Below are positions 4,641 through 60,913 of a stretch of DNA of 64,000 nucleotides, piece after piece. Within the stretch, counting starts at the first letter, position 1. The number at the start of each line of letters is the position of its first letter. The position numbers and the translations under genes are program-made. Under the pieces are notes generated by a model, which saw nothing but the letters and a program-made list of their open reading frames with translations, did no database searches and had not been told where the DNA came from. This stretch comes from a virus (Duplodnaviria; Caudoviricetes): the IMG/VR virus record IMGVR_UViG_3300006467_000491, positions 6,728 to 70,727 of that record. One strand, written 5' to 3'.

Positions 4641-4706
4641 CGTTCACACCTTTGCAAAAAGAAAATCGTAATCCACCTTCGACACTTTCACCTCGTGACC
4701 TGCCTG

Positions 4707-27919: not shown

Positions 27920-29799
27920 TTGAGAGTCCTCATCACCCGGCGAGTTGTGTCGTTCACCTGCTCCATCACGGCTTCCAGTTTCTCCAGCGCCCATGGCCCG
28001 GAAGCCGACAACCGCAAGTATCCCTCTTCAATATACGTTCGCGGCCACTGTGAGAAGTTCCGGCCCCGCTTAAACCGCCCCGATGACCGCGTCTTGGCGC
28101 TGAGTGCCCTCTCGAGGTTTGACGCACTTCGGACGGCCCACGTCACCTGACCGCTGGTGTCGCTCAGAGTTGCTTCGATCTCTGTGAGCATCACCTGGCT
28201 AAACGGCCCCATGAACACGAAACTCTCGATCGGCTCGCCGTCATCGGACGCTGCATCAGAATCCACCTCGCGAACATAGCCATCTTGGCCGTATTCCAGA
28301 ACCCTCCGCTCCGTCTCGGCTCCTCCGTACAACAGGTGGACCGCGAGAGGGTTGTGGTCGTTGTCTGAGTACGAAAATGGCCACCACGCTTCATTTCGCA
28401 CATCCCAGATGTAGTGCGTCGTCGCGCTGCCGTCAGTTGGCGTGATGTAGATTCGCACGGCAATTGCACGGTCATCCCAGATCAGCCGAACGACGTTGTT
28501 GTCCAGATTGATGTTTGCCAGCTTCTCGTCGATCGTCAGGGCTGTGATCCGGCTGGGAATGCCTCCCTCTGGCTCCATCTTGTAAACGCCACCTCGCGAC
28601 CCGAAGAAGTAGATGACGCCCTCCGGGGACTGACACCACGCCTTTCCTTCAGCGATCCCTGTGATATCCGTGACGTTCGCGTTGATTCCGCCTTCCGCTG
28701 GGTTTCCGACGAACTTCCGGATCGAGTGCGTGCCTCCGATCAGCAGGATGTCGTCCGTGTACGGAATCAAGGCCGTCACGATGTCGCTGTTTTTCCCGTA
28801 TCCGCTGGTGACGTTGCCCGCAACCGCCTGCTGCACGGTTTGCACGGCTGGTGAGTAATCCCAGTCAAACGGATCGCCGACAGCCGACATGAAGATGTTG
28901 TTGGGGTCGGTGGTCAGCCCACTGAGGACGACTCGTCCGCCCCAGATCGCAATCAACGAGCACCGCGACCCCACGCGCCGCATGATGCAGGTGCCGCCGC
29001 TGGTGTACGATCCGTTTCCGGTTGACCCGTCGAGAGAAAACGTATCGCTGTCGACCTTCGTAATGACGAAATCGCCATTGGCAGCCGTGTTCCCCAGCAC
29101 GTCGGTGATTACGACCTGATCGCCGGTCACGTACCCGTGGCCAGTGATCGTGATGACAATCGGGGATGCGTTCGTGGCACCTTCCACGTCCTTTGGGTCA
29201 TCCGCCTGTTTCGGCATCGTCCCGCCGTTGTACGCTTCCCACGTCGAGATAACATTGGCCGAAACGTCGAAATACTTGTAGTTCGCGCCATCGACGAAAT
29301 ACAGATCCTGAAAGAATGCCTCCGCGTAGATGACGCTCGGCAGGGATGACAGGGCGTCTTCGCCGGATTCGATCGCTGTGACACCTGCTGTTGAAATCGT
29401 CGCGATGTCTCCGCCGGCCACGGCCGCGATCGTTGTTGTTCGATCCCCGACGGGAACTGATGTCGCTGGCCCAAGATCGCGAGCCACGCCAGATCCGGTC
29501 AACCGGAGTTCACTGGCTGGAGAGCTGCTGGCTCCCGTCACACGGTTGTCGACTTCTGGAGATCCGACCACATGAGCCACGCACTGACCTGCTGCAGATC
29601 CGTTCACCTGATCCGGGCAGAATTTCTCGGTCCCAGCGCGAGACGATCCGCGGTTCCGGCCGGTTGTCGGATCAAATCCCAGCACATTCATGCAACTGGC
29701 GGTCGTGTACGCACCTTCCCTGCCGCCTCGCTGCCGAGTGAATGCGTTCCCCTCGTCGAGCCCCTTGAACGGCCAGTGAATTGTGATTGGCTGTTTCAT
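27916..29799 (-). CDS. Tail nozzle/stabilisation protein (P22 gp10/T7 gp12-like) with FCCH-like insertion
   Basis: 627 aa, beta-propeller-like repeats (WGGRVVLSG, IYFFGSRGGVY, WDVRNEAWWPF); insert TNASPIVITITGHGYVTGDQVVI at ~28990-29190. Confidence 0.7.
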   Translation of the reverse strand: MKQPITIHWPFKGLDEGNAFTRQRGGREGAYTTASCMNVLGFDPTTGRNRGSSRAGTEKFCPDQVNGSAAGQCVAHVVGSPEVDNRVTGASSSPASELRLTGSGVARDLGPATSVPVGDRTTTIAAVAGGDIATISTAGVTAIESGEDALSSLPSVIYAEAFFQDLYFVDGANYKYFDVSANVISTWEAYNGGTMPKQADDPKDVEGATNASPIVITITGHGYVTGDQVVITDVLGNTAANGDFVITKVDSDTFSLDGSTGNGSYTSGGTCIMRRVGSRCSLIAIWGGRVVLSGLTTDPNNIFMSAVGDPFDWDYSPAVQTVQQAVAGNVTSGYGKNSDIVTALIPYTDDILLIGGTHSIRKFVGNPAEGGINANVTDITGIAEGKAWCQSPEGVIYFFGSRGGVYKMEPEGGIPSRITALTIDEKLANINLDNNVVRLIWDDRAIAVRIYITPTDGSATTHYIWDVRNEAWWPFSYSDNDHNPLAVHLLYGGAETERRVLEYGQDGYVREVDSDAASDDGEPIESFVFMGPFSQVMLTEIEATLSDTSGQVTWAVRSASNLERALSAKTRSSGRFKRGRNFSQWPRTYIEEGYLRLSASGPWALEKLEAVMEQVNDTTRRVMRTLK

Positions 29800-29801: not shown

Positions 29802-30659
29802 TTATGGAACAACGAAGACCATACAGACCACGGGATAGGTGCCCGTTCCTCCGGTCGTTGTGACGACCAACCGAATCGTCTGCTTGTCCTGAATCGTCAC
29901 GTTGGCCTGAATTAAGTCACCAAGGGCGTTTTCGACGAACGCACCGTGCGTTGTGGCTGTCCCGGCCGCCGGAGTCACTCCAGCTGTCGACACGTTTGAT
30001 CCGCCACCCAACTGGAGGTTCACGACCGTTGTTGATGAGGTGTGCATGTGTGACACGGAAAACGAAGCCAGATGCCCTGTCTTTCCTCGCCAGCGGTGTG
30101 TCAATCCGTACTCAACTGGCGTGCTCGACCCCAACGTCGTGTAGTCACCAGAGAACACGTGCTGCATTTTGACGAATTTCACCTTGTCCGGCGTCCCGAC
30201 AGACAGGCTGGTGATTGCTGACAGCGGGAGGATGGCGCCAGCGATTGTGAGCAGGGTGGAGCTGACCGCATCACAAACCCCGTAGTAGTAGACCCCTCCA
30301 ATGACCACGCGAACGGGATCGCCGACGGAGAAATAGTCAGTCGCGCGGAGGGCGACTCCGCCGGAAGGGGCTCCGCCAGCGAACGTGATCGTGGATGATG
30401 ACGCGGGAGATGACTCGCCGTACGCATCCTGGTGGATAACTCGCCAACCATCCCAGCCGCCGGGCGCCCAATCCGATCCGTCGTAAACGAGCACATCGCC
30501 CTGCTGAGGGCTTTCGAACGAGTATGCCGGATCGTCGAACAGTAACTGCCGCAACTGGGCTTTATTCAGTCGCTTGCTGACACCCGCATCTTCGATCTCG
30601 AATTCTGCCGCTTCCGGGAAGTCCGACGCCGCCGTCAGTCCTGAAATTGCTACGCCCAC
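29802..30659 (-). CDS. Tail fibre-like structural protein
   Basis: ISGLTAASD...EIEDAGVSKRL N-terminus and GDVLVYDGSDW motif typical of phage fibres. Confidence 0.5.
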   Translation of the reverse strand: MGVAISGLTAASDFPEAAEFEIEDAGVSKRLNKAQLRQLLFDDPAYSFESPQQGDVLVYDGSDWAPGGWDGWRVIHQDAYGESSPASSSTITFAGGAPSGGVALRATDYFSVGDPVRVVIGGVYYYGVCDAVSSTLLTIAGAILPLSAITSLSVGTPDKVKFVKMQHVFSGDYTTLGSSTPVEYGLTHRWRGKTGHLASFSVSHMHTSSTTVVNLQLGGGSNVSTAGVTPAAGTATTHGAFVENALGDLIQANVTIQDKQTIRLVVTTTGGTGTYPVVCMVFVVP

Positions 30660-30669
30660 AGTTTTCTCC

Positions 30670-31026
30670 TCATGTCACCCGGTCAACAATCGTTACGGGG
30701 ATTGACCGTCTCGCGGTGTGCCCGCTGGCTGTCGCGTTGATTTCGATCGTGTACTCCAGCGACAGGTCCAGATCGACCGACGCCGGCATCTTCCCCTGAT
30801 ACTTGCCGTTGCTGCCAGTCACGTAGTCCATCGACGCCGGGCCGTACACCGTCGCGTTCACCGCTCCGGATGGAGTTGTCAGCGCCCCGGTTGTTGAAAC
30901 CAGTGAGTACCCTGAATACAGCGTGAAAGTGACAGTCCCATCATTAACGTACGCACCGTCCGACGAATCGCTGAGCCATGTCCACTCAATGAGAGTGTCA
31001 TTCTTTCGGTAGATTTTGTGGCTCAT
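30670..31026 (-). CDS. Small beta-rich (Ig-like) structural protein
   Basis: 118 aa, Thr/Ser/Val-rich, within the tail cluster. Confidence 0.45.
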   Translation of the reverse strand: MSHKIYRKNDTLIEWTWLSDSSDGAYVNDGTVTFTLYSGYSLVSTTGALTTPSGAVNATVYGPASMDYVTGSNGKYQGKMPASVDLDLSLEYTIEINATASGHTARRSIPVTIVDRVT

Positions 31027-31037
31027 TGGACGATGTC

Positions 31038-31298
31038 CTACGGGTTCACTTCAACTGAACCAGACAGGTAGCTCTCGATCTGCACGTCTCCGGACAGGAA
31101 AACACACGTCGCCAGTGATCCGTGCATGAAGTCCGGTTCGTTACCCCTCACGAATGAACCATAACGCACACCAACGTACGACGAAAACGTCAGGATCTGG
31201 GTCAGCCCCACTTCACCGCCGCGAGTCGCCTCGTCTTTCGCCGAGAATGAGTACCCGGCACCCATTACGCCATTCGGTGAGCGTGCGGTTATGCTCAC
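31038..31298 (-). CDS. Hypothetical structural protein
   Basis: 86 aa, coupled to neighbouring genes. Confidence 0.45.
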   Translation of the reverse strand: MSITARSPNGVMGAGYSFSAKDEATRGGEVGLTQILTFSSYVGVRYGSFVRGNEPDFMHGSLATCVFLSGDVQIESYLSGSVEVNP

Positions 31299-32590
31299 AA
31301 GATGATCCCCGTATCGTTGTTCGACGGCGCGTCGGTCATTGCTGTCACAGTGAACTGTCCGATACCGCCCACTGCTTCATAATCACTGATGTCTGTCGCC
31401 TGACCAGCCAGAACCCCTGATGTCCAGACGACAATTCGGCCATTGTAGTGATCGCCAGTCGCTTCCGTGATGTCATCCGCCTGAAACTCGGTCGTTGTCG
31501 GGGTGTGCGTATTTGTCGCAGTGTCGACGGTGAACGGGATGATCTGGCCGGCGGACAGAGCCAACCGTGCGGCGGCCGTTGCTCCAAGAGTGTCCGTGAT
31601 GACCTTGATGGCGTCAATCAGGAGGTCCAGCCGTCCTCCGTCAGTCAGGTCTCCCTGTATCTCACTGGTGTCAGTCTCAATCGCGTCGATGCTCGACTGT
31701 GTGGCCGAAAGCAAGTTCACCCCGTCCGCACCTGTGATAATGTCCAGATCTGACTGTGCGGTGTCCAGCTTCGTTTCGTTGGTATCGCCCTGAGTTGTCA
31801 GTTCGTCAAAAATCAGGTCCAGCCGTCCGCCATTCGCTAAATCCTGCTGCATTTCATCCGTATCAGCCACGATTGCAGCCAATTGCGTGCTATTGCTGTC
31901 GATTTCTAACCTGATGGCCGCTGCCGTCGGAGCACTGCCACCCACCGCAGCAAGGATGTCGATCGTGTCACCAACCGCCATAGTAAAAATGCCAGGATCA
32001 GCAGACAGTGTCACCGTCTTACTTGACCCCGTGTAATCACTGATGGTTCCTACGGCCTTCTGTGTGCTGGTCGACTGATCGGTCACGATGGCAATTGCAC
32101 CGTTGTACGCATCGTCATCTGCTGAACCGGCCGTGAGCGTGAACGATGTCTGAGACGCGAGTGTGGCGATCGTCGTAGCCTGCAGCAGTTGCGGAGAAGA
32201 CCCGGAGGTTGCCTCGACCTGCATGTATCCGGTGTCCTTGGCCTCATACAGTGAGTCGTAAGCCGCTTCAGACAGAACGCGATACACAGCTCGCACAGGC
32301 CGGCAAAGTGATACATCCCAGACTGAAATCGTCAACTGACCCTCAGTGTCTGTATTGCTCGCTGTCAGTGACAAGTTGTAGTAGCCATCCATCCCGACGA
32401 CAGCGGCCCATGTCGATCCGGTAATGTCTACTGGTGAAGCTGAGCCATGCTTTAGCAGTTCAGCCCCATCCACTGACAGGAACGACACCCCAGTCTCGAG
32501 TGTCAGCTCATCTGTTGCATCGACAAATGGCCCCAACACCACGTCAATCGCTGTGTTTGCTCGCAAGTCCTGCATCAGAAACCCCGTCAC
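31295..32590 (-). CDS. Structural protein with duplicated beta modules and a helical stalk
   Basis: 431 aa; DLANGGRLDL/DLTDGGRLDL repeats; two related YNGxI modules. Confidence 0.55.
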   Translation of the reverse strand: MTGFLMQDLRANTAIDVVLGPFVDATDELTLETGVSFLSVDGAELLKHGSASPVDITGSTWAAVVGMDGYYNLSLTASNTDTEGQLTISVWDVSLCRPVRAVYRVLSEAAYDSLYEAKDTGYMQVEATSGSSPQLLQATTIATLASQTSFTLTAGSADDDAYNGAIAIVTDQSTSTQKAVGTISDYTGSSKTVTLSADPGIFTMAVGDTIDILAAVGGSAPTAAAIRLEIDSNSTQLAAIVADTDEMQQDLANGGRLDLIFDELTTQGDTNETKLDTAQSDLDIITGADGVNLLSATQSSIDAIETDTSEIQGDLTDGGRLDLLIDAIKVITDTLGATAAARLALSAGQIIPFTVDTATNTHTPTTTEFQADDITEATGDHYNGRIVVWTSGVLAGQATDISDYEAVGGIGQFTVTAMTDAPSNNDTGIIL

Positions 32591-33141
32591 ACAATCTTGA
32601 AGATATCGCCGCTCGACGGCGCGGTCGTGAGTTCGCCGAACGTCAGGAGCGGCAACGCTGCCGCGCTGCTGACACTGATCGTCGTGATCTGGCCGCGAAG
32701 TGCAGCCGTCGTGGTCTGATTATCAAACACGATGATTCGATTGATCAACTGATTCGCCGCCGATGCCTCCGTGGACATGTACGAAGGAGTGAACTGCGTT
32801 GTGCTCGGGGTTGTCGCCGCACCGACCGTCCCGCTGATGAATGTGCGGTTTTGGGCTTCGAACACTTCGTCAACGCGGGACATCCCGGCCCGTAGGATTC
32901 CATCGTACACCAGCGAGGCAGCCGACTCTGACGCCCCGCTGTAAATCGCCACGTCGTAATTCACGTTTTCAGCTCGGGGTTCGGCCAACGTGAAAGACCA
33001 CAATGACGTTGAACCACTTTCCGTGATGGTGTCGCCACCAGTGTTCAGCAACGCGCCAGTTGTGGGGTGCCGCAGGAACGCCGTGAACGTGCCTGCATCA
33101 CCTGAAATGTCTGGGAATCGGACGTAGATGGTTTCGCTCAT
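32587..33141 (-). CDS. Structural protein whose C-domain is paralogous to that of the downstream gene
   Basis: 184 aa; PSTTQF...LRGQITTI...TAPSSGDIFKIV. Confidence 0.55.
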   Translation of the reverse strand: MSETIYVRFPDISGDAGTFTAFLRHPTTGALLNTGGDTITESGSTSLWSFTLAEPRAENVNYDVAIYSGASESAASLVYDGILRAGMSRVDEVFEAQNRTFISGTVGAATTPSTTQFTPSYMSTEASAANQLINRIIVFDNQTTTAALRGQITTISVSSAAALPLLTFGELTTAPSSGDIFKIV

Positions 33142-33947
33142 GCCAGTAACCCCAGTCCTCGCAAGGCCGAAACGACCTGGCGAATCGTGTATCCGTCAAA
33201 CGTGCTATCATCCGTAACGGCTACGCCAGAGTTCGCCGTGAATGTCGATTCTGCGTACCCTGTTGTTGGCTGCGCGATTGCTGTCGTTCCGTAGAACCCG
33301 ATTTTGTTGCCAGACACTCCGAGATGAATATCCCGCAGCGTCCCGGCCCCCGAGTTGTAAGTCCCGATCGTGAACACGTTCGAGATGAAACCAACATTCG
33401 CCCGTTCGTAGTTCGAGGCACTCGTGTAGGTGTTGTAGATCCGATGGGTGTGCGGCTGGGTTCCAACGCGAGACGCGATCACACCGGCCGCTCCGTCGCG
33501 AACCATCCCTGTCTCGAGCGTGCTTGTTCCATTGGCCGCGCCGGCCGATGTCCATCCATACGATCCGCTGGCCCACATTGTCGCGTTGAATGTTGACGTG
33601 AGCGCCCAGCTCCCAGACCCCATCACGATCCGACCCTCAGCGTCGATAGCTGTAACAACTGCGGCCGAGGTGTTCCGGAAGACAACCTGATTGACCGTCT
33701 GACTGGAGTACGGTGTAACGTCCAACTGGAAGGTGTCAGAAACGCCGGTCAGTGTGATCTGGGTGTCAGTGCCGAGGATCGCATTCGTTTGCGCAGCAGT
33801 CAGCTCTTCCGCTTCACCGGAACCGACTGTTGTGCGACCCAGAATGCGATCAGTTGGGATCGGGTATATCTGGGCGGTCTTGATAATCTTCGAGCCCATG
33901 GCTTTCGCGGCCTTCCTTGTCCCGTCACAAAATACCAATCGCCACAA
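33138..33947 (-). CDS. Tail fibre-like protein
   Basis: 269 aa; ILGRTTVGSGEAEELTAAQ and KIGFYGTTAIAQP fibre motifs. Confidence 0.55.
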   Translation of the reverse strand: MWRLVFCDGTRKAAKAMGSKIIKTAQIYPIPTDRILGRTTVGSGEAEELTAAQTNAILGTDTQITLTGVSDTFQLDVTPYSSQTVNQVVFRNTSAAVVTAIDAEGRIVMGSGSWALTSTFNATMWASGSYGWTSAGAANGTSTLETGMVRDGAAGVIASRVGTQPHTHRIYNTYTSASNYERANVGFISNVFTIGTYNSGAGTLRDIHLGVSGNKIGFYGTTAIAQPTTGYAESTFTANSGVAVTDDSTFDGYTIRQVVSALRGLGLLA

Positions 33948-36603
33948 GTGGCCCCGGCACTAACTCTGCCCCACCAGCCGCAGGCACCGCATCCACAGCC
34001 CCCGCAACGTAAGTCCCCGACCGTGCGTTGCCGTAGTAGTCTTCCGGCACTGCTCCCATTTCGGTCGGCGCTGAGAACAAGATGTCCGAATCGTCCGTGT
34101 CGTCAGGACGGTATGTACTGGCGTTGTAACTGATTGACTTACTCAGATTGCCCGTCCCGATGTTCGGGGATGCTCGGGCATTGAACGTGGCCCAGTCGTC
34201 CCGAGTCGCACTGCCATTCACACGCACGTCATCATCGGATGTTGCTGGTGGCGATACCGTGTTTTCCAGCAACGGTGTCGCGCTGTCGTCCGTCACTACA
34301 AGCGTTTCGGTTTTGCTCGTGTACTCCAGCAACAGGCAGTTCTTCAGCCCGCAACCGCTGTATTCGTCGCGGACCTGCACATGTGCCGCTGCCGTGTTTC
34401 GCTCAATGACAGTGCAATGCACAAGATAATCGTTGACCGCTGGATATGAGGCCGCGAGACCACCAATCCTGACATCGCCGAGAATGATGCAGTTTCGAAC
34501 CCTGACGTTTTCTGACTCTTGATTAGTTCCGCCGATCTTGAGTGCAATTTGCCCTGATGTCAGCGAAGAATCCAGCCCTATGGTGAGTCGTTCCACAATC
34601 GCCAACATCGGACCCTCTGCATGCACTCCTGAAGTGTGCCCAATCTGCATCGCCGTTGTGCTGGTGTTAGTCGCCGCTGATGTCGCCGTCACGCTCGCAT
34701 CCGATGACCCCTCACCGTCGATGTAAAGCCCGCTGCCACCCGTGTACGACAACGCCGTTTTTCCGTCTGGCGTGTTCGCGTATTCCAGTTTTGGCTTTAC
34801 GAATGTCGGGTCTGTTCCCTCACCTCTCGCCGGCCTTTGGTCCCCGGCGAACAACAGTGATTGAGCACCGAGAAACACCAGGTAGTCACCATCGAACCAA
34901 ATGTCATTGGTGGCAGTGTGACCGTTGGTTGTGACGTCCTGAGACACCATGTGAGACGACGTTGAATCGCCCACGAAATGGCAACAGTCCACGTGATTGC
35001 CAGTGCAGTCGAGCAACCAGCTATCCGTTTTCGTACCAGCTCGAATGTCGAGCAACCGAACAGCACCGCCGACCGATGATGCTGACACGTTGCAATCCCG
35101 CAGGCCAATACCACCACCCTCGACAATCGCGCCGACTGACGTGCTGACGTTGAACTTCGTACCCGCGACAGTTGAGCGAACGATGACGTTGCTGGCACCT
35201 GAACCACCGGGAGTATCAGCCCAAGCGTGCGTTTTGCTCGCTGTGCACTGAATCTCTAAATCCGTTTCCGTCTCACCGCCCAGACAATTAGCTATTGTGT
35301 CGTATGGATCGCCCGAATCTGTGGGGTCTGTAGGTGATGCTGAACCGTCGTCAGGATCGACAAACACGACTCGCCGCGTATTCGGTGTCACTCGGACAGT
35401 TCGCGTAGCACTCGCTGACAAACCCGCTGAATTCGTGATCGTGCAGGTGACTGTGTAATCGGTGTTCTCGCCGGGTTCTGTGTCGTAAATGTGCCCGCCA
35501 GAAAACCCCCTGTGCTCATTGTAGTCGCTGCCCGTGTCGCCAAAATCCCATTCGACTTTTGCATCACACCACGCACCCGATCCGATAAACGAACCAGAAC
35601 GGCAGGACATCACAACGCCCCACGGTCCCATCACCGAATAGGTTCCACTCGTTTCCCCGTCAGGGTCAGCAATCACCACCAGCGGATCGCCCGTTGCTGT
35701 CACACTGATTTCGTTGCTGTTGGCTGTGTCGCTGCCGTCGTCGTACTCCAACACGTAATAGTAGGTTGTGTCTTCGGTCAACCCCGTGTCAGCCAACGTC
35801 AGGCTTGTCGCGCCACTAACCACGTTCCCTGGTCCCGGCGTGAATCCAGAACTGGTGTCTCGATGCCATTGGTACGTATAGCTTCCACTGCCGCCGGTTG
35901 CGTCCGTCGCGGAAACACTGGCTGTAGTCGCCGTCCTGTCAGTGACAGATGCCGTTCCCGCTGTCAATGGTCCGTTGTGCACAGCCAGGATGACGCCAGC
36001 GACCTGGCACCCCGCCTCCGCTGTTGATATCGAACTTTCCACCGTTGTGGACGCAGCAATACCCGTCTTGTCGGCAATCTTGCACCACTGCAAAGCTGCC
36101 GGGCTGTGGACTCCCGTGTACTCGCTGAATGAGTTGCTATAGCTCGGACTGCCGTATGACGACTCATCTTCGCCGAGCCACATCGCAATGCCGAGCGTGT
36201 TGCCCTGGTCCGTCGCCGCTGTTGTCCCTGTCGTCTGCGATGTCGTGTCGCCCGAAGACTCCGCCGTGGCTGTCACGTCAATCGCGTCAGCGTCATCAAT
36301 CCCCCCGTACTCAGCAACCGCCATGCAGGCCTTTCGGCTGCCCGTCCACGTGATTGTGATTGTGGCAGACTCACCAGCACCCGCGACCTTGTAGGCGAAC
36401 ACGCCATATGCCGCACTATTGCTCGTCGGTGTCAGAACAGCCGTCCAACCAGATGGCAACGTAATCGTTCCTGGGCTGAACAAGCATGACACAACAGCCA
36501 CCAACAAGTTGCCCTCTGTTGGCGCTGCGTCCAGCGTCACTTCAGCCTGTCCGACATTGGAAGACTCGCTGTTGTACGTCTTGGTTTGGACTCGTGCTGC
36601 CAT
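33925..36603 (-). CDS. Multidomain tail spike (beta-sandwich + Fn3 + PKD + beta-helix-like)
   Basis: Fn3-like YTYQWHR...GLTEDTTYYYVL; PKD-like EWDFGD...HIY...YTVTCTIT; repetitive beta-helix-like C-half. Confidence 0.65.
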   Translation of the reverse strand: MAARVQTKTYNSESSNVGQAEVTLDAAPTEGNLLVAVVSCLFSPGTITLPSGWTAVLTPTSNSAAYGVFAYKVAGAGESATITITWTGSRKACMAVAEYGGIDDADAIDVTATAESSGDTTSQTTGTTAATDQGNTLGIAMWLGEDESSYGSPSYSNSFSEYTGVHSPAALQWCKIADKTGIAASTTVESSISTAEAGCQVAGVILAVHNGPLTAGTASVTDRTATTASVSATDATGGSGSYTYQWHRDTSSGFTPGPGNVVSGATSLTLADTGLTEDTTYYYVLEYDDGSDTANSNEISVTATGDPLVVIADPDGETSGTYSVMGPWGVVMSCRSGSFIGSGAWCDAKVEWDFGDTGSDYNEHRGFSGGHIYDTEPGENTDYTVTCTITNSAGLSASATRTVRVTPNTRRVVFVDPDDGSASPTDPTDSGDPYDTIANCLGGETETDLEIQCTASKTHAWADTPGGSGASNVIVRSTVAGTKFNVSTSVGAIVEGGGIGLRDCNVSASSVGGAVRLLDIRAGTKTDSWLLDCTGNHVDCCHFVGDSTSSHMVSQDVTTNGHTATNDIWFDGDYLVFLGAQSLLFAGDQRPARGEGTDPTFVKPKLEYANTPDGKTALSYTGGSGLYIDGEGSSDASVTATSAATNTSTTAMQIGHTSGVHAEGPMLAIVERLTIGLDSSLTSGQIALKIGGTNQESENVRVRNCIILGDVRIGGLAASYPAVNDYLVHCTVIERNTAAAHVQVRDEYSGCGLKNCLLLEYTSKTETLVVTDDSATPLLENTVSPPATSDDDVRVNGSATRDDWATFNARASPNIGTGNLSKSISYNASTYRPDDTDDSDILFSAPTEMGAVPEDYYGNARSGTYVAGAVDAVPAAGGAELVPGPLVAIGIL

Positions 36604-36807
36604 CTATTTCCGCCCCGACAGTTTCTCTTTAAGGTTCCCGAGTCTCTCAACACCCAACGCACCAATGATCAACGCCACAAACGTCCCGAGCGATTTCATC
36701 TCCGTCTCGTCGAAGTCATTCGCGAACAACCACAGCGAAAAGCACAACGCCGTCATTAGAACGGTGAAACGTAGTAGCCCGTAGATGGGGTGCGTTGGGT
36801 TATTCAT
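36604..36807 (-). CDS. Holin-like 2-TM protein
   Basis: 67 aa from ATG 36807; two hydrophobic segments and a basic tail KEKLSGRK. Confidence 0.55.
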   Translation of the reverse strand: MNNPTHPIYGLLRFTVLMTALCFSLWLFANDFDETEMKSLGTFVALIIGALGVERLGNLKEKLSGRK

Positions 36808-37165
36808 TTTCAACCTTTCGGCAAGACACCATTGCTGCAACCGTCGCCCAACTGATCACGGCAGTAAGGCCGCTCCAGATTGCGAACAGGTGATACGCCG
36901 GCCATTGAAACACGATCACATGCTCCAGATGCCCAAGGCCACATGACGTAATAAACCCCGCGAACAGGCACCGACACAATAAGCTGCGGTACATCTGCGA
37001 CCAGGAAACGTCCACGACGAACATGGCGAGAGGAATTGCAACATAGGCTCCCGTGATTGCAAGGTTTGACCACTGATACAGCAGCCTCAGCGCTGTGTGC
37101 CAGTCGCCACAATGCCCACGGGGCAGAAATCGCGTTGCGTCGAAAATCAAGTCCACTGACGTCAC
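36800..37165 (-). CDS. Stand-alone ethylene-receptor-type (ETR1-like) 3-TM sensor domain
   Basis: GTG 37165 overlaps the upstream TGA. FLPRGHCGDW, SNLAITGAYVAIP, LFAGFITSCGLGHL (CxxxH), PAYHL and LTAVIS match the ethylene-binding domain. Confidence 0.8.
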   Translation of the reverse strand: MTSVDLIFDATRFLPRGHCGDWHTALRLLYQWSNLAITGAYVAIPLAMFVVDVSWSQMYRSLLCRCLFAGFITSCGLGHLEHVIVFQWPAYHLFAIWSGLTAVISWATVAAMVSCRKVENE

Positions 37166-37584
37166 CCTGTTACAAGCAATCCTGTTGCCCACATCACGCC
37201 CGCGATTCCCGACATAAGCAGAACCAACCGCCAAATACTGTCTGATCGTTTCGTCGAAGCCGCCTTGACGTGACAGCATGCCGCTACGATTCCCGGTATT
37301 TGCCGAAAGAATATGTTGAACGTCGGACCCCATGTCATGAACCATTGTGTTGTGGGAAGGTCCAGAGCGTCCGATGTCCATGCAAGCTGCCAAAATATGT
37401 TGTCTAACGCAGCACCCATGAACGAGATGAACACTCCCACAACAAACCATTCCGTGTCTTGCTTGTCACGTACCTTTATGGCGTTGTGTGCCGCCCGCAT
37501 CCACGTCTGGCAGACCAAAATCGCGAGAGCGATCGTCGGCAACGTGAGAGCGATGGACACCAACGCGAGCCCCTGTGGGATCAT
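37162..37584 (-). CDS. Uncharacterised 4-TM membrane protein
   Basis: Start at ATG 37584 (GAGGG RBS); four hydrophobic segments; ALDNIFW and NIFFRQ...AACCH motifs. Confidence 0.6.
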   Translation of the reverse strand: MIPQGLALVSIALTLPTIALAILVCQTWMRAAHNAIKVRDKQDTEWFVVGVFISFMGAALDNIFWQLAWTSDALDLPTTQWFMTWGPTFNIFFRQIPGIVAACCHVKAASTKRSDSIWRLVLLMSGIAGVMWATGLLVTG

Positions 37585-37909
37585 TAGTTTTACCCTCATA
37601 CGCAGAATGCACTATCGACAGAACATCCTCATGCAATGCCGTCAGCCGATCCGCGACCTCGTTTCGTTCGTCCATGCGCCCCCGGAGTTCCATCACCTGG
37701 CCCGTCAGCGAGATAAACTTTTCGTTGGTTTGCGCGTGGCCCTTTTCGCATGCGTTCAGCTTCTCCTCCGTTTTGCTGGCTTGCTTTTGAAAGTAAGACC
37801 AGAAGACCTTGAGAGCCCCGACAAGACCAATAATTGCCGACGTGAACGCCGCCAGAATATAAGGTTGCCCGGACGTCTCGACAGTGTCGGCTAGAGTCAG
37901 CAAATCCAT
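37466..37909 (-). CDS. Single-TM + coiled-coil protein
   Basis: YILAAFTSAIIGLVGALKVFW TM followed by a heptad region; the last ~40 codons overlap the next gene. Confidence 0.55.
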   Translation of the reverse strand: MDLLTLADTVETSGQPYILAAFTSAIIGLVGALKVFWSYFQKQASKTEEKLNACEKGHAQTNEKFISLTGQVMELRGRMDERNEVADRLTALHEDVLSIVHSAYEGKTNDPTGARVGVHRSHVADDRSRDFGLPDVDAGGTQRHKGT

Positions 37910-38020
37910 GATTGAAATTCTCCGGCCAACCGGCCGGCTGGGTGGTTCAAGGTTTGGTGATTCCGGGATTGAGCAACAACAACTTGATCACGTTGTTCCA
38001 AAATAGTGAATACTGTTTTA

Positions 38021-38410
38021 TCACCTCACGTACAGAACGACAGTCCCGGCCTTCGTATCCCCGGCACTCGCAACCGTCAGCGTCAACACGCCATCCACGA
38101 ACATCGGGATCACGCTGGTGGTTGTGCCGTCAGTAAGCGGGGTTCCGGGACAAGTGTTCAATGACGAACTGTTCGACAAATTGGCCCCAAGCCCTGCCAG
38201 CACGTCCACACTATTCGGGTCAGTCAACGTAATGTCATACAGGTTAGTTGGCGCCGCTGTTGCCGATGGGATAAACACCACCCGGATGATGACCCCGCTG
38301 ACAGCCTGTGGTGAGACCACACTGGCGTCGCCACTTCCGTCGCTTTCCCACTCGATCGTGTGTCTCACGATATCCGTGCCGTTCACCCGATAAGCTGTAT
38401 CCCATCCCAT
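38021..38410 (-). CDS. Small beta-rich structural protein
   Basis: 129 aa within the late operon. Confidence 0.55.
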   Translation of the reverse strand: MGWDTAYRVNGTDIVRHTIEWESDGSGDASVVSPQAVSGVIIRVVFIPSATAAPTNLYDITLTDPNSVDVLAGLGANLSNSSSLNTCPGTPLTDGTTTSVIPMFVDGVLTLTVASAGDTKAGTVVLYVR

Positions 38411-38485
38411 GAGGCTGATTCCTTAAAAGATAAAGCCGCCGAGGTGACGAGACACACGACGGCCCTGAGTGACTGAGCGAGTGAA

Positions 38486-38710
38486 TCAGCTGGTTGTCGC
38501 AGCATCGAAGTTGCACGACGCCTTTGTTCCAACATTGATGTAAATCGTGTTGTCCAGTGTTGTGCCGTCAGTCTTGATGAACAGACAACCAGGTGCGTAC
38601 CCGATTGTCGCATCGGTCGGCACGGTCGTCCCGTACGCGATCAGAATGCCGACGTTCGGGTCTTTCGCGATCTGGCCAAGGCCATCGTGAATGTTGACTG
38701 CGTGTGACAT
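38486..38710 (-). CDS. Small structural/decoration-like protein
   Basis: 74 aa; GYAPGCLFIKTDG...IYINVG motif seen in phage decoration proteins. Confidence 0.5.
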   Translation of the reverse strand: MSHAVNIHDGLGQIAKDPNVGILIAYGTTVPTDATIGYAPGCLFIKTDGTTLDNTIYINVGTKASCNFDAATTS

Positions 38711-38797
38711 GATTACCTCAGCTTTCGAAACGGTTCACAACGGTGGTGCCTTGTACGTGGCACTCTTTCAGGATCAATCCAACGCTCTCGTTGTGCC

Positions 38798-39805
38798 TTA
38801 CGACACGTTCTCATTGTACGTGGTGTCTCCGAGACCAACGTGCATCACTCGCGGCCCCAGTCGAGACCATTTCGCGCGATTACTGCTGTTGTCCAGATTC
38901 TGGCCCAGCAGGCCGGGATTGCTCACTCGCCGATCGTAGGAAACCGCCGCCTGGAGCTTCGCCCGAAACAGTTGGTTGTGAACGCCGGCCTCGCCTTTGA
39001 ACTCCACTTCAGCCGCCGCTAATACCGCTTCGCGCAGACACTCGGAAAGCGGCAACCCACCCATCGGATACGGCAGGGACGATGTCAGTCGGTACGGGTT
39101 CCAGACATAGAACCCCGTGATCGTGTAAACGGCATCCGGATACGGCCAGACCGTTATTTGCCATTTCTGGTCTGCGGCGCCAGTCTGGTCTTTCGCGAAG
39201 ATCGCGTACCGTGCTGGCTGAGAAGCGAAGTCAGCCACACCGCTCTTCTGGAGCTGCAGAAGCTCCTCTTTGCTGCCCCGCTCCAGAATGTATCCCAGCG
39301 ATGTGTTCGTCTGGTTCAAATACAGATCACCGCGAAACCCGCCGAACAGATCCGGCAGTGTGTAGTCGATCTGCTGCAGCGTATAGACACTCCCGGCCGC
39401 GGCAGTGACCGTTGTGTCTTCCAGTGTCAACTGCGTGTCGCTGTCACGTGAACTGACCGCATAGCCGATTCCGCCAACAACAAACTCGCCGTCTGCTGCC
39501 CAACTGGGGAAAACTGTCCCGTCACCAGTCACTACACCGCTCGCGACAGTGCATGTCCCGGTCGCGTACGGCTGATTGAGCGTGAAGGATAGCAGTTTTG
39601 GCTGCATGAAGGACCAGATATGGACCTCCGCGTCACCCGGGATCAGCTCTGGCTCGTAAACCCACCGACACCCGATATCCACGACCATATCAACGCGGGT
39701 CGCGAAATCGGAATCCCACGACGTGGTGTCAATGCCAAGGCCAAGGAGGTTTCCCACTGCCTTCCGCAAATCATCACGAGTGAGTGTCAGCGTCGATTCG
39801 GCCAC
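38798..39805 (-). CDS. Head-tail adaptor (P22 gp4/T7 gp11-like) with an inserted beta domain
   Basis: LTRDDLRKAV N-terminal helix, WPYPDAVYTI, ECLREAVLAAAE; position after the capsid genes. Confidence 0.65.
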   Translation of the reverse strand: MAESTLTLTRDDLRKAVGNLLGLGIDTTSWDSDFATRVDMVVDIGCRWVYEPELIPGDAEVHIWSFMQPKLLSFTLNQPYATGTCTVASGVVTGDGTVFPSWAADGEFVVGGIGYAVSSRDSDTQLTLEDTTVTAAAGSVYTLQQIDYTLPDLFGGFRGDLYLNQTNTSLGYILERGSKEELLQLQKSGVADFASQPARYAIFAKDQTGAADQKWQITVWPYPDAVYTITGFYVWNPYRLTSSLPYPMGGLPLSECLREAVLAAAEVEFKGEAGVHNQLFRAKLQAAVSYDRRVSNPGLLGQNLDNSSNRAKWSRLGPRVMHVGLGDTTYNENVS

Positions 39806-39808
39806 AGC

Positions 39809-40258
39809 CTACGCTCCAATGACTTGAACTTTGCTCGCCCGGAAGTGACGGACTTCTCCGTCAACCCGAACGTCGATCCAGCTGCCACGGCACTCCATGA
39901 ACTCGCCTTTGACCGTCGAGTTGTCTTTGAGGAGGACGTAGACAGGGGTTTCCTGCACCACTTTTGTCCAGTCGAAACTCGGATCACCTTCGGTCGTGTC
40001 CTCACCGAAGTAATGGCCGAACATGCCGCCCAGTGGGAGGTTTTCGCACGAGAACTGCCGCCCGTCTTCTGTTGTGCTCAACCACGTCAGGGCAACACAG
40101 AGGGCGGTTGTCTTCGAGAGAGTTCCGTTGAGCCCCAGCGCCAAATGCCGCTTGATCACCCACTGATGCAACCGTGCCAATGAATCTGGAAGCTGCCGCG
40201 GTTCAAGCCCGTCCGTAAACAGCACTGCCCGATAGTAACTCGCCGTTGTAGGGTCCAT
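39809..40258 (-). CDS. Hypothetical protein
   Basis: 149 aa with its own RBS after the terminator. Confidence 0.6.
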   Translation of the reverse strand: MDPTTASYYRAVLFTDGLEPRQLPDSLARLHQWVIKRHLALGLNGTLSKTTALCVALTWLSTTEDGRQFSCENLPLGGMFGHYFGEDTTEGDPSFDWTKVVQETPVYVLLKDNSTVKGEFMECRGSWIDVRVDGEVRHFRASKVQVIGA

Positions 40259-40272
40259 CTGTCACCTCAAGA

Positions 40273-40318
40273 GAAAAGGCGACGCAGGATCGCTCACCAG
40301 AAACGCCCTGCGCCGCCT
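40273..40318 (-). terminator. Intrinsic terminator after the capsid/decoration genes
   Basis: 12-bp stem AGGCGGCGCAGG/CCTGCGTCGCCT (one G-U) followed by TTT. Confidence 0.75.
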
Positions 40319-40337
40319 GAAAACACAAGCCAAGCTA

Positions 40338-41195
40338 TCAGAGCAGCTGGGCACATCTCCACCAGTCCATGTAGGCGTAGTTCGCCGTTCCGCCGGTGTC
40401 AGCGAACTGGGCGAACACCGGGCCCATGTTGCTCGCGTCAAGGTGAGTCAGTGCGGCCCATGTCGCCTTTGACACGGGAGATCCGCCTTTAACACCATTG
40501 ACGAAGAACTCCAAACAACTTGATCCACGTGCTGGATCGAACGTAAACCCGACTTTCACCCAGGTGTTAGCGGCAATCGCGCCAAGGCCTGTTTCGGCAT
40601 GGGTGTAAGTTGCTGCTTCGTCTGTGTACGAAGCGTTCAGGACGCCAAGACCGTCTTCCAGCCGGGTAATACCAGCCAAAGCGACGGCTGTTCCAGTCGC
40701 ATCAGCATCAGCCAAGGGAATCGCAGCCCCAAACGTCACATCTCCGACGTTGCCAAGACCACAGAAGATGTGGGTCATGTTCGTCGCGATTGACGTTGTC
40801 GCAATTCGGGCCTCGAACCACAGTTTCTTTGCTGTCGTTGCGAGCGAAAACGGAGCCTGCGCTGTTCCAATCACAGCCTGATCACCAGCCGTGTCACACA
40901 GCATCGAAATGGCACCGCCTGCTTGAGTACCGCCTGACGCATGTGGCATTGAGTCTCGGATCACGGTGCCAGCGGTCGTGGCGTAGACCTTGTAGCCATC
41001 GCCAAAACCAATCTCCGTCGTCTGAGTCCCGGCGGCGAGCGGAAAGCGAAGGAAGTCGTCAAAGAAGGTGATCCCGTCTTTCACGCCAGCCTGAATTTCA
41101 AGCCACGGACAATCAGCCCAGATGCTCGGACTGTTCCCGCGGCCGGTATTGGAGAGCCCAGAGTTCTGGGAACCCTTGTATTGTGTCACGTTCAT
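40338..41195 (-). CDS. Minor capsid/decoration protein (ConA/LamG-like fold)
   Basis: FFDDF...LWFEARI...VGFTFD...FFVNG pattern; follows the major capsid gene. Confidence 0.6.
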   Translation of the reverse strand: MNVTQYKGSQNSGLSNTGRGNSPSIWADCPWLEIQAGVKDGITFFDDFLRFPLAAGTQTTEIGFGDGYKVYATTAGTVIRDSMPHASGGTQAGGAISMLCDTAGDQAVIGTAQAPFSLATTAKKLWFEARIATTSIATNMTHIFCGLGNVGDVTFGAAIPLADADATGTAVALAGITRLEDGLGVLNASYTDEAATYTHAETGLGAIAANTWVKVGFTFDPARGSSCLEFFVNGVKGGSPVSKATWAALTHLDASNMGPVFAQFADTGGTANYAYMDWWRCAQLL

Positions 41196-41394
41196 CGTAC
41201 TTGCCTTTCAAGGTTGCCACCAAACCCCTCTGGTGGTCATTCGTTGCCTTGCGAGCAACTGGGGTCCGCCCCCGGCAGCGGCACTCCTTCCCGATCACGC
41301 GACCGGGCCGGGAATCGAATTACCAAAACAGCGGGGGAGGCGGCACGCCTGGAGCACGGTCAGAACGTGCCACCCCTCCCAAGGTGCTTCATAC

Positions 41395-41423
41395 TTGCAA
41401 CACAACATGTTGCTGTGTATCTT
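41395..41423 (+). promoter_or_regulatory. sigma70-like promoter for the HNH gene
   Basis: TTGCAA-17 nt-TATCTT; the spacer contains the palindrome CAACATGTTG. Confidence 0.5.
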
Positions 41424-41465
41424 CGTGCGGCCAGTCAAACACCCTCTTTCCAACGAAGACATCAA

Positions 41466-42320
41466 ATGGCGCGCACGAAAAAGTTCAAAGATCTCACTGG
41501 GGAGCGTTTCGGACGGTACACCGTCCTCTCCCATGTCATTGGTCAATACTGGCTCTGCCGGTGTGACTGCGGCGTCGAAAAGAAACTGTTCAGCCCAAAC
41601 TTCACCAAGAGCAAATCGCCCATGTGCCGCGAATGCTCCGACAAAGAACGAATCGTAGACCTGACCGGCCAGCGTTTCGGAAAGTGGACTGTCCTGAAAC
41701 TCGATAGCAAGAGAAAGTGGCTCTGCCGTTGTGACTGCGGAGCTGAACACATCGTCGATCGAGGAAACTTGCAGCAAGGCTCTTCGACTCAATGCACCGC
41801 GTGCTACCACACCAACCGGCCAACGAAACATGGCCACTCCACGAAAGGGCAGTGGTCGCCAACCTACCAAACATGGGTGAGCATCAAACAGCGATGCCTT
41901 AACCCCAACCATGGTGTCTACCATCACTACGGAGACGCCGGAATTCGCATGTGCCAAGGATGGCAAGACTCCTTCCCCCTGTTCCTCGAACTCATGGGAG
42001 AACGAACCAGCCAGCATCTGTCCATCGACCGCGCGGACACTGACGAATCGACTCGCCACTATTCCTGCGGCCAGTGCGATGAATGCAAAGAGAATGGATG
42101 GGTGTTTCATTGCCGATGGGCCACAAAGTCTGAACAGTCAAAAAACCGGATCGTTCCAGCCAGGAATTTTTACACCCACAACGGGAAAACAATGAGCCTG
42201 AAAGAGTGGTCTGAAGAACTCAACATACCACTATCAACCCTGTCAAACCGGATGTCCGTTTACAAATGGTCTGTTGAAAAAACACTCTCCACCCCTCGTC
42301 GCAAATACAACAAGGGGTGA
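41466..42320 (+). CDS. Free-standing HNH-type homing endonuclease with duplicated Cys-rich N-terminal repeats
   Basis: True start MARTKK at 41466; two DLTGxRFGxxTVL...WLCRCDCG repeats; TYQTWVSIKQRC, SIDR...CRWATKSEQSKNR; C-terminal HTH (SLKEWSEELNIP). Confidence 0.85.
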   Translation: MARTKKFKDLTGERFGRYTVLSHVIGQYWLCRCDCGVEKKLFSPNFTKSKSPMCRECSDKERIVDLTGQRFGKWTVLKLDSKRKWLCRCDCGAEHIVDRGNLQQGSSTQCTACYHTNRPTKHGHSTKGQWSPTYQTWVSIKQRCLNPNHGVYHHYGDAGIRMCQGWQDSFPLFLELMGERTSQHLSIDRADTDESTRHYSCGQCDECKENGWVFHCRWATKSEQSKNRIVPARNFYTHNGKTMSLKEWSEELNIPLSTLSNRMSVYKWSVEKTLSTPRRKYNKG

Positions 42321-45342: not shown

Positions 45343-47084
45343 CCCTCTCCCCCAGCGCCCGCAAGAGCCATCATTTCACGCTGCTGATCCATTCCGCGAT
45401 CGCTCATCCCGTGGCTGACGTTCTCCCGGGTATATTGTCCGTTCGGCTTATCCGGCCGGGGACCGCCCCCGCCGGCCAGCTGCTCTCGTGGGTCCATGGC
45501 TTCCTGCGTCATCTTCACGATTTCTCGCAGTTCCGGGAGGTCGTAATACTTCGCCAGCTTCGAAAGGTACGTGTAAACGTCCGGCTGAACACCCAACTGA
45601 ATTGCCGGAAGAATGTCCTCTCGCCAAATCTGACGCAGCAAGGACGCCCGTTCCCCGGGAGAAATCTCGGTCATCGAATACGGCTGAATCGCGATGTCGT
45701 ACTCGTGGTAACTGCCGCGGCGAACATCCTCCTCCTCACCGTATCCGTTGTCGCGGTACGGCCACTTCACCGGCAGTTTCATGTCGGTGCCAGTGATTTC
45801 GACGGTCAGGTCGTAGTCGACGGTCGGGTGGTGATGCAGATAGAACGCGATGTCTCGGAGCACACCCTGAGTGGCGGTCAATAACACGCCCTGCATCGAG
45901 CCGATCCGCACATTGGATGCTTGTCGGATCATCTTCTCCTGCCCCAGCGTCTGCGCAGAGGCACCGAGACCCATCTGTGCGGACAGATTTCCCATCACGA
46001 AATCGGCCATGGATCGCACGTTGAGCGCGAAACCAAGTGTTTGCTGGTTCACGCCGCCAAAACTGGCCTCTTTGAACGAATTCGGGCTCCCAACCGCAAT
46101 CACATCGCCATCGCTGGTCTTAATGATGTTCTGGCCGTCCTGAACTGCCGCATTGTCGCAAATCCCGATCGTCTTCTGCCGAGATGCCTGTCGGCCGAGC
46201 TTCGAATACAGCTTGTTCTCGAGGTCATCCAGATCAATCCAGTTGGCGATCGGCGGCAACGGCATGATGTTGTTCAAAACGGGATTGAACCCGACAAGAT
46301 GGTACGGGCCACGCGCCGGGCCTCGCCATTTCACCGTTTTCAGCGGCTGATCGCCGTCACGTGAAAACTTAACCAGCTCATTCGTCTGGGGGACGAATAT
46401 CTGCCAGATCTCGGCCATTTCCTCGAATGCTTCGCCCTGCCCGACGCTGCCGGATTGCTTGGAAATGGACGCCGATTCATCCCGGCCGGGCTTTTCCATT
46501 GGCTTCAGGGACTCTCGAGCCGACTTATTGAACGATTTGTCCTTCTTCGCTTCTTCCAGATTCACACGGAACTTGTGCCCCCAGAACCCGACCTGCCTGC
46601 GGTCCCACTTCTTCGCGGTTGTGTCGAACACGAAGTCATCGAACATGATCGTCTCGACGAAAACCTCCGTTACCGGCAGTGGCTCGCCGTCAACTTCCGG
46701 AGAATCGACGATGTTCAGGCCGACCTCCATGATCCCAATGGAAAAGATCGCCGACAGCACCCACAAGCGGTGCTCCTCCTCGAATCGCATCCGTTTCAGG
46801 GCTTCGTTTAAAGCCAGCTCCATCTCAATTGCTGATGAAGCAAGTTCCGGCTTGTGTGTCGTGCATAGAACCTGTGGCGCACGGGAGGACAGCTGTTGCA
46901 GCAGCGACTCGACCGAGAGCTGCAGCATGTTAATCGGCCGCTCGTCGACGGTGCCTTTGCCGTAATGAGGGCCGGTGTACGACTTCAGGGCGTTAGAAAG
47001 CTCTTCTCGGAACGGCTCAAGGTGCTTGCGGCATGGGTCGATTGCGTTTTTCAGGGCAATGAATCGTTTCTGATCCATGGTCAA
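45339..47084 (-). CDS. Portal protein (podovirus-like)
   Basis: 581 aa, directly downstream of the terminase; helical N-terminus with FDDFVFD and GSAQT-like wing/clip segments. Confidence 0.85.
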   Translation of the reverse strand: MTMDQKRFIALKNAIDPCRKHLEPFREELSNALKSYTGPHYGKGTVDERPINMLQLSVESLLQQLSSRAPQVLCTTHKPELASSAIEMELALNEALKRMRFEEEHRLWVLSAIFSIGIMEVGLNIVDSPEVDGEPLPVTEVFVETIMFDDFVFDTTAKKWDRRQVGFWGHKFRVNLEEAKKDKSFNKSARESLKPMEKPGRDESASISKQSGSVGQGEAFEEMAEIWQIFVPQTNELVKFSRDGDQPLKTVKWRGPARGPYHLVGFNPVLNNIMPLPPIANWIDLDDLENKLYSKLGRQASRQKTIGICDNAAVQDGQNIIKTSDGDVIAVGSPNSFKEASFGGVNQQTLGFALNVRSMADFVMGNLSAQMGLGASAQTLGQEKMIRQASNVRIGSMQGVLLTATQGVLRDIAFYLHHHPTVDYDLTVEITGTDMKLPVKWPYRDNGYGEEEDVRRGSYHEYDIAIQPYSMTEISPGERASLLRQIWREDILPAIQLGVQPDVYTYLSKLAKYYDLPELREIVKMTQEAMDPREQLAGGGGPRPDKPNGQYTRENVSHGMSDRGMDQQREMMALAGAGGEG

Positions 47085-60644: not shown

Positions 60645-60913
60645 ATCATCGCTGCCTTTTGCTCCCGCAGTTTCCCGATAGCGGCATTCATCTCATTGAT
60701 GACTTTTTGAAAGTCGTCAAAAGATGGTGCCGCTTTTTCCATCGTCGGCTCGCCAGCTTGGCCCTGCTGGCACATAGCAAGCGCCTGCATTGCTGCCTGC
60801 ATCTGGCCAACCAAGCCAGCAATCCTCCAGACGATCGTATCGTACTCGTCCGATGCTGCGTCCAAGAGCCCCGAGATCTGGTCGACGTTCTGCTGTTCCA
60901 TTTCGCAGGCCAT
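60629..60913 (-). CDS. Helical-hairpin/coiled-coil protein
   Basis: Start MACEME at 60913 with GGAG RBS. Confidence 0.55.
   Translation of the reverse strand: MACEMEQQNVDQISGLLDAASDEYDTIVWRIAGLVGQMQAAMQALAMCQQGQAGEPTMEKAAPSFDDFQKVINEMNAAIGKLREQKAAMIQSVS

Follow-up and report, generated by a model that had tools for sequence, protein, structure and literature searches.

The DNA analysed here (the window) is a stretch of 64,000 nucleotides of a tailed-phage genome (positions 6,728 to 70,727 of IMG/VR record IMGVR_UViG_3300006467_000491, Caudoviricetes). An open reading frame (ORF) at 36800-37165 of the window encodes, as judged by profile comparison and structure prediction, a true ETR1_N domain, i.e. 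a three-helix membrane bundle with the Cys/His pair of the ethylene receptors and no output domain attached. The ethylene-binding domain is a classic sensor of a plant hormone. The family itself is known; what is new, as read from the sequence, is a virus-borne, output-less form of it whose pocket is changed and whose partners are new.

The assignment to the family was made with the Pfam profile PF25487 (ETR1_N), which matches the 121-residue protein over profile positions 4-89 of 97 with a score of 53.6 bits (E 2.8e-14; gathering cut-off 27 bits). A six-frame search of the genome with the same profile gave 53 bits, and 17 of 17 aligned family members match it as well, so that the homology proposed by eye in an earlier note on this DNA is borne out by profile. 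A phmmer search of 1.84 billion representative proteins returned 2248 matches at E<=1e-3. The AlphaFold2 model, calculated from the family alignment, has a mean predicted local distance difference test (pLDDT) score of 90.5 and a predicted template modelling (pTM) score of 0.80, with helices at residues 24-50, 62-84 and 91-114, and hydropathy agrees on three transmembrane (TM) helices. The charge distribution fits a predicted N-out/C-in topology, as in ETR1. A fold search of the model against the PDB and BFVD gave no match at E<=0.001, which is uninformative for a three-helix bundle, and a profile search of PDB sequences for ETR1_N found nothing; the fold searches are silent because no solved structure of the domain was found.

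The gene is defined as follows.

36800-37165, minus strand: ETR1_N gene, 121 residues from GTG at 37165 or 118 residues from GTG at 37156.

The start at GTG 37165 overlaps the TGA stop of the upstream 145-residue gene (as GTGA); the alternative GTG at 37156 lies 8 nt after an AGGG, and its 118-residue product begins MDLIFD (compare MIDFFFD in homologues). At the other end, the TAA stop (36802-36800) lies inside ATGAATAA and overlaps the ATG (36807) of the downstream 67-residue gene, as the earlier note had described. The motifs listed there (FLPRGHCGDW, SN..I..AY..IP, LFAGFITSCGLGHL, P.Y.L and LTAVIS) are all present in the ORF. The stand-alone layout also holds: the protein ends seven residues past helix 3, with no further domain and no cytoplasmic GAF, PAS or kinase output fused to it, and the record is a complete phage genome. 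The gene is intact, with all motifs kept, in three metagenome contigs that are 93-96% identical (L015-L017; contigs and records bearing homologues are referred to by L numbers), with approximately six synonymous and approximately five non-synonymous codon changes. Two longer versions of the gene were rejected. The 216-residue ATG ORF (to 37450) is not a real gene, its extension overlapping the 145-residue gene in another frame and showing 12 amino-acid changes in 95 codons relative to a 93%-identical relative; the 193-residue gene call P0001 likewise has an unconstrained extension that overlaps the 145-residue gene.

The pocket was compared with that of ETR1 through the profile alignment with 150 homologues, which gives the following equivalences (window residue = ETR1 residue).

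N34 = D25; Y41 = Y32; I44/P45 = I35/P36; I72 = I62; C75 = C65.
G78 = T68; H79 = H69; S98 = K91; also H92.

The equivalents of Cys65 and His69, the copper ligands of ETR1 in helix 2, are kept as C75 and H79, in agreement with the earlier note, and are conserved in 150/150 and 149/150 homologues, respectively; an N-terminal motif, R16-x2-C19-G20-x-W22, is invariant in the same alignment. The equivalents of Tyr32, Ile35, Pro36 and Ile62 are present as Y41, I44, P45 and I72, and these four, with Cys65 and His69, are what we take to be among the residues required for ethylene binding in ETR1; the list of such residues was reportedly given by Wang et al. in 2006. A seven-residue set required for ethylene binding does exist in ETR1, and an isolated 130-residue domain is enough for binding (PMC11819568). 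The remaining pocket positions differ. Asp25 of helix 1, which copper binding and high affinity require, is replaced by Asn (N34) and Lys91 of helix 3 by Ser (S98), both as read in the earlier note, and the Thr68 equivalent is Gly (G78). Asp25 and Lys91 form a co-evolving polar pair (PMC10266040). The D25N variant of ETR1 shows no ethylene binding detectable by the standard assay, yet signalling in plants persists (PMC10266040), and the affinity drop is given as ∼100-fold (PMC11971883). Lys91 transmits the signal, loss of the basic residue there lowers binding, and Thr68 lies 2.7 Å from the copper in the published model (PMC10266040). Asn at the Asp25 position also occurs naturally, in 3.67% of ethylene-binding domains, most of them from cyanobacteria (PMC10266040; PMC11971883). 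With Asp25, Thr68 and Lys91 all altered, high-affinity (nanomolar) ethylene binding is unlikely here; a signal of lower affinity (olefin, gas, redox or metal) would be more plausible. A metal site of altered chemistry in the phage clade is plausible because the clade appears to gain one or two histidines near the pocket.

Changes at these positions recur among the relatives. Leaving aside the window's own protein, the 12 top-ranked phmmer matches are all of 121-155 residues, and multidomain proteins of 500-1400 residues appear only from rank 13. The window domain and its 149 best matches were aligned (150 domains), and long forms (n = 75; more than 100 residues after the domain) were compared with short forms (n = 46; tail of at most 45 residues). 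At window positions 34, 78, 92 and 98 the long forms carry Asp (74/75), Thr (52/75), Arg (72/75) and Lys (69/75); the short forms carry Asn (26/46), Gly (35/46), His (24/46) and His (31/46), and the window carries Asn, Gly, His and Ser. With the duplicate from the window's own record dropped, the Asp/Lys pair occurs in 69 of the 75 long forms and in four of 45 short forms, 19 of which have the pair Asn/His. In a FastTree phylogeny of the 150 domains, the window falls in a group (Shimodaira-Hasegawa-like support 96) of 38 short, 21 coiled-coil-tailed and two long forms. On this comparison the altered pocket (mostly Asn/Gly/His/His in the nearest output-less forms, Asn/Gly/His/Ser here) is a lineage signature, part of a coordinated pocket change, and the window gene belongs to a distinct lineage of mostly output-less forms. 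The 21 coiled-coil-tailed forms (P0044, P0074, P0097 and 18 others; 164-222 residues) consist of ETR1_N and a C-terminal coiled coil of ∼45-95 residues only; in the tree they group with the stand-alone forms, and their coiled coil is fused directly to the domain.

The genome is that of a very divergent tailed phage, and the ETR1_N gene lies within its late structural operon. The record is 70,727 bp long with direct terminal repeats and is rated 100% complete by CheckV. It encodes the large terminase subunit (terL) at 47081-49135, a weak match to a tail protein at 27916-29799, a RecD2-type helicase and an exonuclease, and minus-strand ORFs run unbroken from 49.7 kb to 11 kb. The ETR1_N gene follows three putative head-side genes and precedes the gene for an 892-residue fibre-like protein (33925-36603). 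A 97-nt tRNA-Pro(CGG) called by ARAGORN at 39809-39905 (minus strand) lies wholly inside a 149-residue ORF and is probably a false call.

Four overlapping genes for small membrane proteins stand in a row, in the order 147 residues, 145 residues, ETR1_N and 67 residues, and the translation of ETR1_N is coupled to that of the neighbour on either side.

37466-37909, minus strand: 147-residue protein with an N-terminal TM helix (approximately residues 17-37) followed by a coiled coil (hydropathy).
37162-37599, minus strand: 145-residue protein with three to four hydrophobic segments (hydropathy); its TGA stop overlaps the ETR1_N GTG.
36604-36807, minus strand: 67-residue protein, hydrophobic in two segments and charged at its C-terminus; start ATG and ETR1_N stop overlap in ATGAATAA.

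The 67-residue protein matches the holin/antiholin family phrog_126 with an E value of 0.0018 (three of five family members match, best E 6.6e-4) and the lambda-S family Phage_holin_3_1 (PF05106) with 14.7 bits, under the cut-off of 23.8. It has only close relatives (63-94% identity), and its gene differs from L016/L017 by 12 synonymous and five non-synonymous codon changes. The earlier note had described the ETR1_N gene as coupled to a holin-like gene. The protein is possibly holin-like, and coupling to a holin is not established: the family matches are marginal, the protein does not recur beside ETR1_N in other lineages and no endolysin was recognised. An in-frame TTG upstream (36808-36840, minus strand) would add MQQWCLAERLK to the 67-residue protein; this positively charged extension recalls dual-start holin/antiholin pairs, lies inside the ETR1_N gene and may be due to chance. 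The 145-residue protein has no Pfam or PHROG match, and its gene shows 13 synonymous and seven non-synonymous changes relative to L017. ESM Atlas searches with the 67- and 145-residue proteins gave unnamed clusters only, below useful scores. The Pfam coiled-coil matches of the 147-residue protein are all sub-threshold; it resembles the TM-coiled-coil part of a 255-residue protein of L018 (BLASTP E 0.004), and it is built like the anchored coiled-coil proteins encoded next to ETR1_N in other phages.

In all lineages whose flanks can be read, ETR1_N directly adjoins or overlaps the gene of some small protein anchored in the membrane. A tight link to such a protein recurs; the link to the 67-residue holin-like gene does not. 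In six lineages the position directly downstream is taken by a conserved partner of 69-106 residues, with one TM helix, a coiled coil and the N-terminal motif E-A-x-K-Q-x-P-x-L-x-V-L-V, at the following coordinates.

L002 643-885; L006 721-1041; L008 779-988.
L012 2322-2543; L014 5380-5601; L021 6393-6638.

This partner family forms 29 clusters in a large protein database, all unnamed, ∼10 of which carry a second motif, HDATV[KR]G; searches against Pfam and PHROG gave no assignment. The ETR1_N gene of L009-L011 is preceded by that of a C-terminally anchored PAS protein (L009 4645-5136; L010 187-747), which ends 1 nt before ETR1_N; the PAS protein matches PAS_9 and PAS_4 above their cut-offs. 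In L018/L019 the 255-residue TM-coiled-coil protein is directly upstream of ETR1_N; AlphaFold2 gives a pLDDT below 50 over the C-terminal domain of the L018 protein, and its BLASTP comparison with PAS proteins was not significant. In L003/L007 a 251-residue protein with two TM helices and sub-threshold similarity to SLATT lies downstream of ETR1_N.

Several further arrangements were observed. At 6455-8856 of L003 (a 68-kb contig) and 6401-8453 of L007 (a 177-kb contig), ETR1_N and the two-TM protein are followed by a 2H-SAK/InPase protein, an arrangement that resembles parts of nucleotide-centred conflict systems. Right beside ETR1_N, L014 encodes at ∼4393-4873 a lipoprotein with a C-terminal TM helix, an architecture like that of unimolecular spanins, and L020 encodes a lipoprotein and an N-anchored protein (4661-4912 and 5031-5375); none of these spanin-like proteins gave a family match. 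The window genome has its own 331-residue PAS protein at 60717-61712 (minus strand), 24 kb from the ETR1_N gene. Its PAS match was checked, and the layout PAS-coiled coil-TM is that described in the earlier note; its PAS domain is 26% identical to that of the anchored PAS protein of L009-L011 (E 1e-4). PAS and ETR1_N proteins may together form a split sensor.

The domain is found in other viruses. A scan of IMG/VR with a degenerate DNA motif (C-G-x-x-H / P-x-Y / T-A; TGC codon only, no indels) matched 24 stretches, 17 of which encode true homologues, namely L014 and 16 further records; the ORF has at most 182 residues in 14 of the 17. All 16 further records exceed the PF25487 cut-off (37.7-126 bits), and seven of them are genomes at least 90% complete (60-488 kb). 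Both canonical (Asp/Thr/Lys) and altered pockets occur among these ORFs. Scanning IMG/VR with peptide patterns gave no match for the single protein, A4, P0022 or A6, and for A2 it gave L014 alone, a 58-kb record that is 95% complete and has, by reading of its ORFs, one terminase-like and one portal-like ORF. The contexts of the nearest homologues are phage-like wherever there is enough DNA, and all recovered contexts are either phage-like or unassignable: L009 has Mu Gp48 baseplate and Gp80 neighbours, L020 (a 52-kb contig) a Laminin_G_3 fibre, YqaJ and RecT, L021 (a 52-kb contig) a Collar domain and an SU10 adaptor, and L012 a fibre-like protein nearby. The guanine + cytosine content of the homologue contigs ranges from 41% to 68%, and therefore many hosts are involved. 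Three very large records, L027 (G003, 350 kb), L032 (G016, 279 kb) and L042 (G017, 488 kb), have canonical-pocket or long ETR1_N, so that the altered stand-alone clade is not the only form in which phages carry the domain; the L042 protein has 568 residues, and the adjoining ORFs are receiver-like by eye. A tblastn search with four family members against 50,697 GenBank phage records gave no match, no phage ETR1_N case was found in BFVD, and a literature search found no published one, in keeping with the earlier note, which knew of none. Clade-specific patterns, applied in two scans to 185,579 species genomes, gave no clade member; the patterns are narrow, and this is weak evidence of absence.

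We propose, with a probability of about 0.4, that the ETR1_N protein works in the membrane as a sensor or gate with a metal site and acts late in infection by way of the coupled small membrane proteins, perhaps on the timing of lysis. The protein would be inserted N-out/C-in into the inner membrane of the host, probably in dimeric form, and a pocket in the half of the bundle that lies in the outer leaflet would hold Cu(I) or, in view of the clade's additional histidines, some other metal or protons. Without an output domain, it would pass its state within the membrane to the coupled anchored proteins, here the 145- and 67-residue neighbours and perhaps the 147-residue TM-coiled-coil protein. 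A late membrane event would thus be tuned, most plausibly the timing of holin-type permeabilisation, as antiholins gate holins. The weak but repeatable holin/antiholin match of the 67-residue gene and the spanin-like architecture beside ETR1_N in L014 and L020 point towards a late membrane or lysis role. In a more specific form, which we consider quite improbable, a minimal, self-contained phage receptor or gate would read a diffusible hydrophobic ligand, copper or redox state in its metal-centred pocket and, as an ion-permeable dimer or via a coupled single-pass coiled-coil partner, decide when the host membrane is breached.

A number of findings weigh against the proposal. The cassette sits between head and tail-fibre genes, not at the end of the operon. 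The 67-residue protein has no counterpart beside ETR1_N in other lineages and is restricted to close relatives, and the conserved partner family is absent from window positions 30001-42000 by hidden Markov model search (E 4.5 for the 147-residue protein). Pfam or PHROG scans of ∼45 ORFs of the window genome recognised no endolysin, and six-frame whole-genome searches with PF00959, PF01510, PF01464 and PF13539 found nothing, either in the genome of the window or in that of L014; a search with PF00182 was uninformative, as its controls failed too. Among the other ETR1_N-bearing virus records, a recognisable endolysin lies within 4 kb in only one of 16, namely G014, with an Amidase_2 3.8 kb downstream. 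The link to lysis is circumstantial because endolysins near ETR1_N are hardly recognised. A Cu(I) site is not to be assumed because D25N leaves ETR1 with only minimal residual copper binding in vitro (PMC10266040). A promoter and terminator scan around the cassette gave nothing above chance and says nothing either way.

Of the competing explanations, the one we rate highest, though still as unlikely, is that the protein itself is the pore, a holin- or viroporin-like dimer or oligomer in which the metal site is a gate or structural and the neighbours are modulators. Its size, three helices, predicted N-out/C-in topology and short basic C-terminus match class I holins, and its gene sits among those for small membrane proteins in a late operon; a preprint (10.1101/2025.10.20.683334) reports Ca2+ conduction by ETR1 and ERS1, which in ETR1 depends on dimerisation and is enhanced by ethylene, and the ETR1_N bundle would be the only membrane-embedded part of those proteins. 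The channel claim, however, comes from a single preprint on full-length plant proteins, and the ETR1_N protein has no similarity to any holin family in Pfam, PHROG or BFVD searches. Holins need neither an invariant Cys/His pocket nor the R-x2-CG-x-W motif that is shared with cytoplasmic-output sensors, and there is no adjacent endolysin.

We regard as quite unlikely a superinfection-exclusion or moron-type envelope protein in which the ETR1_N fold is reused as a scaffold and which would shield the infected cell or modify its envelope. Exclusion genes such as cor and llp adjoin tail-fibre genes, and tail-fibre or baseplate genes repeatedly adjoin ETR1_N as well (window 33925-36603, L012, L020, L021, L009, L026/L035 and L028), with lipoproteins nearby in L014 and L020. 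Against it, neither a promoter nor a terminator of its own rises above chance and the overlapping starts and stops favour co-translation with late genes; the conservation of the metal pocket would also be left unexplained. Improbable to a slightly greater degree is a decoy or dominant-negative subunit that forms heterodimers with a host ETR1_N kinase or cyclase and so silences or locks the host pathway. ETR1-type receptors act as dimers that form by way of this domain (PMC10266040); the phage protein retains the invariant N-terminal Cys and is 40-45% identical to domains of long bacterial sensors. However, the clade is a separate branch that differs precisely in the coupled pocket residues, phage-encoded partners accompany the domain, and no host target can be named.

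A fully competent high-affinity receptor domain, through which the phage reads ethylene, is very unlikely. Six of the seven required residues are kept (the equivalents of Y32, I35, P36, I62, C65 and H69), and the isolated domain can bind ethylene (PMC11819568). Against this stand the Asn at Asp25, which in ETR1 brings ∼100-fold weaker affinity and minimal copper binding in vitro, the Ser at Lys91, where loss of the basic residue lowers binding, and the Gly at Thr68, next to the modelled copper (PMC10266040). That the ORF is spurious, or is host DNA mis-binned into a viral contig, is scarcely credible: nothing beyond the poor annotation of the genome suggests it. Terminal repeats and a rating as complete mark the record, phage structural genes lie on both sides of the gene, three diverged relatives carry it intact and homologues occur in 17 other virus records.

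Phages are not known to carry ETR1_N, and its occurrence in at least 18 uncultured virus genomes, mostly output-less and tied to small membrane proteins, points to an undescribed late-infection membrane mechanism. With Asp25-Lys91 swapped for Asn-His (Asn-Ser here), the clade offers a test set up by nature of how metal and ligand binding depend on the pocket, and a natural stand-alone version of ∼120 residues with many diverged phage variants is attractive for structural work and for the engineering of gas or metal sensors. If a receptor or gate of this kind does decide when the membrane is breached, lysis timing in phages would have an environmental input of a new class, and the protein would serve as a minimal natural model for a domain of which no solved structure was found.

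The sensor or gate proposed here can be set beside several known systems. In antiholin-holin pairs (T4 RI with holin T, P1 LydB with LydA and lambda S107 with S105), a small membrane sensor gates a holin by membrane or periplasmic contact and the genes are tightly linked. The likeness is one of concept, an analogy only: there is no relation in sequence or fold, the holin here is unproven and no endolysin is nearby. For the lambda S-type holin/antiholin family (phrog_126; PF05106), the segments and tail of the 67-residue protein align to TM2-TM3-tail; unlike members of that family, it lacks the first helix and a neighbouring endolysin, and the match (E ∼1e-3) is under the Pfam cut-off. VqmA of VP882 and AimR of the arbitrium system are phage-encoded receptors that read small signals, and are alike in that a phage carries its own sensor of a chemical cue. 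They are, however, soluble DNA-binding regulators of the lysis-lysogeny decision, whereas the phage ETR1_N protein is integral to the membrane, has no DNA-binding or enzymatic output and is encoded in a late operon.

The closest comparison is with the ethylene receptors themselves, ETR1/ERS1 of Arabidopsis, SynEtr1 of Synechocystis and AzoEtr1 of Azospirillum, which have in common with the phage protein the three-helix membrane fold, Cys65/His69 and the equivalents of Y32, I35, P36 and I62; the bacterial-type N-terminal motif with its invariant Cys is shared as well. Unlike ETR1, SynEtr1 and AzoEtr1, the phage protein has no GAF, PAS, kinase or receiver domain, carries Asn, Gly and Ser at Asp25, Thr68 and Lys91, is phage-encoded and is set between genes for small membrane proteins. 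The D25N variant of ETR1 is like the phage protein in having Asn with Cys and His intact, and is functional in plants with ∼100-fold weaker ethylene binding (PMC11971883). The plant and cyanobacterial D25N variants keep Lys91 and the output module, whereas the phage protein has Ser at the former position (mostly His in its clade) and Gly at that of Thr68.

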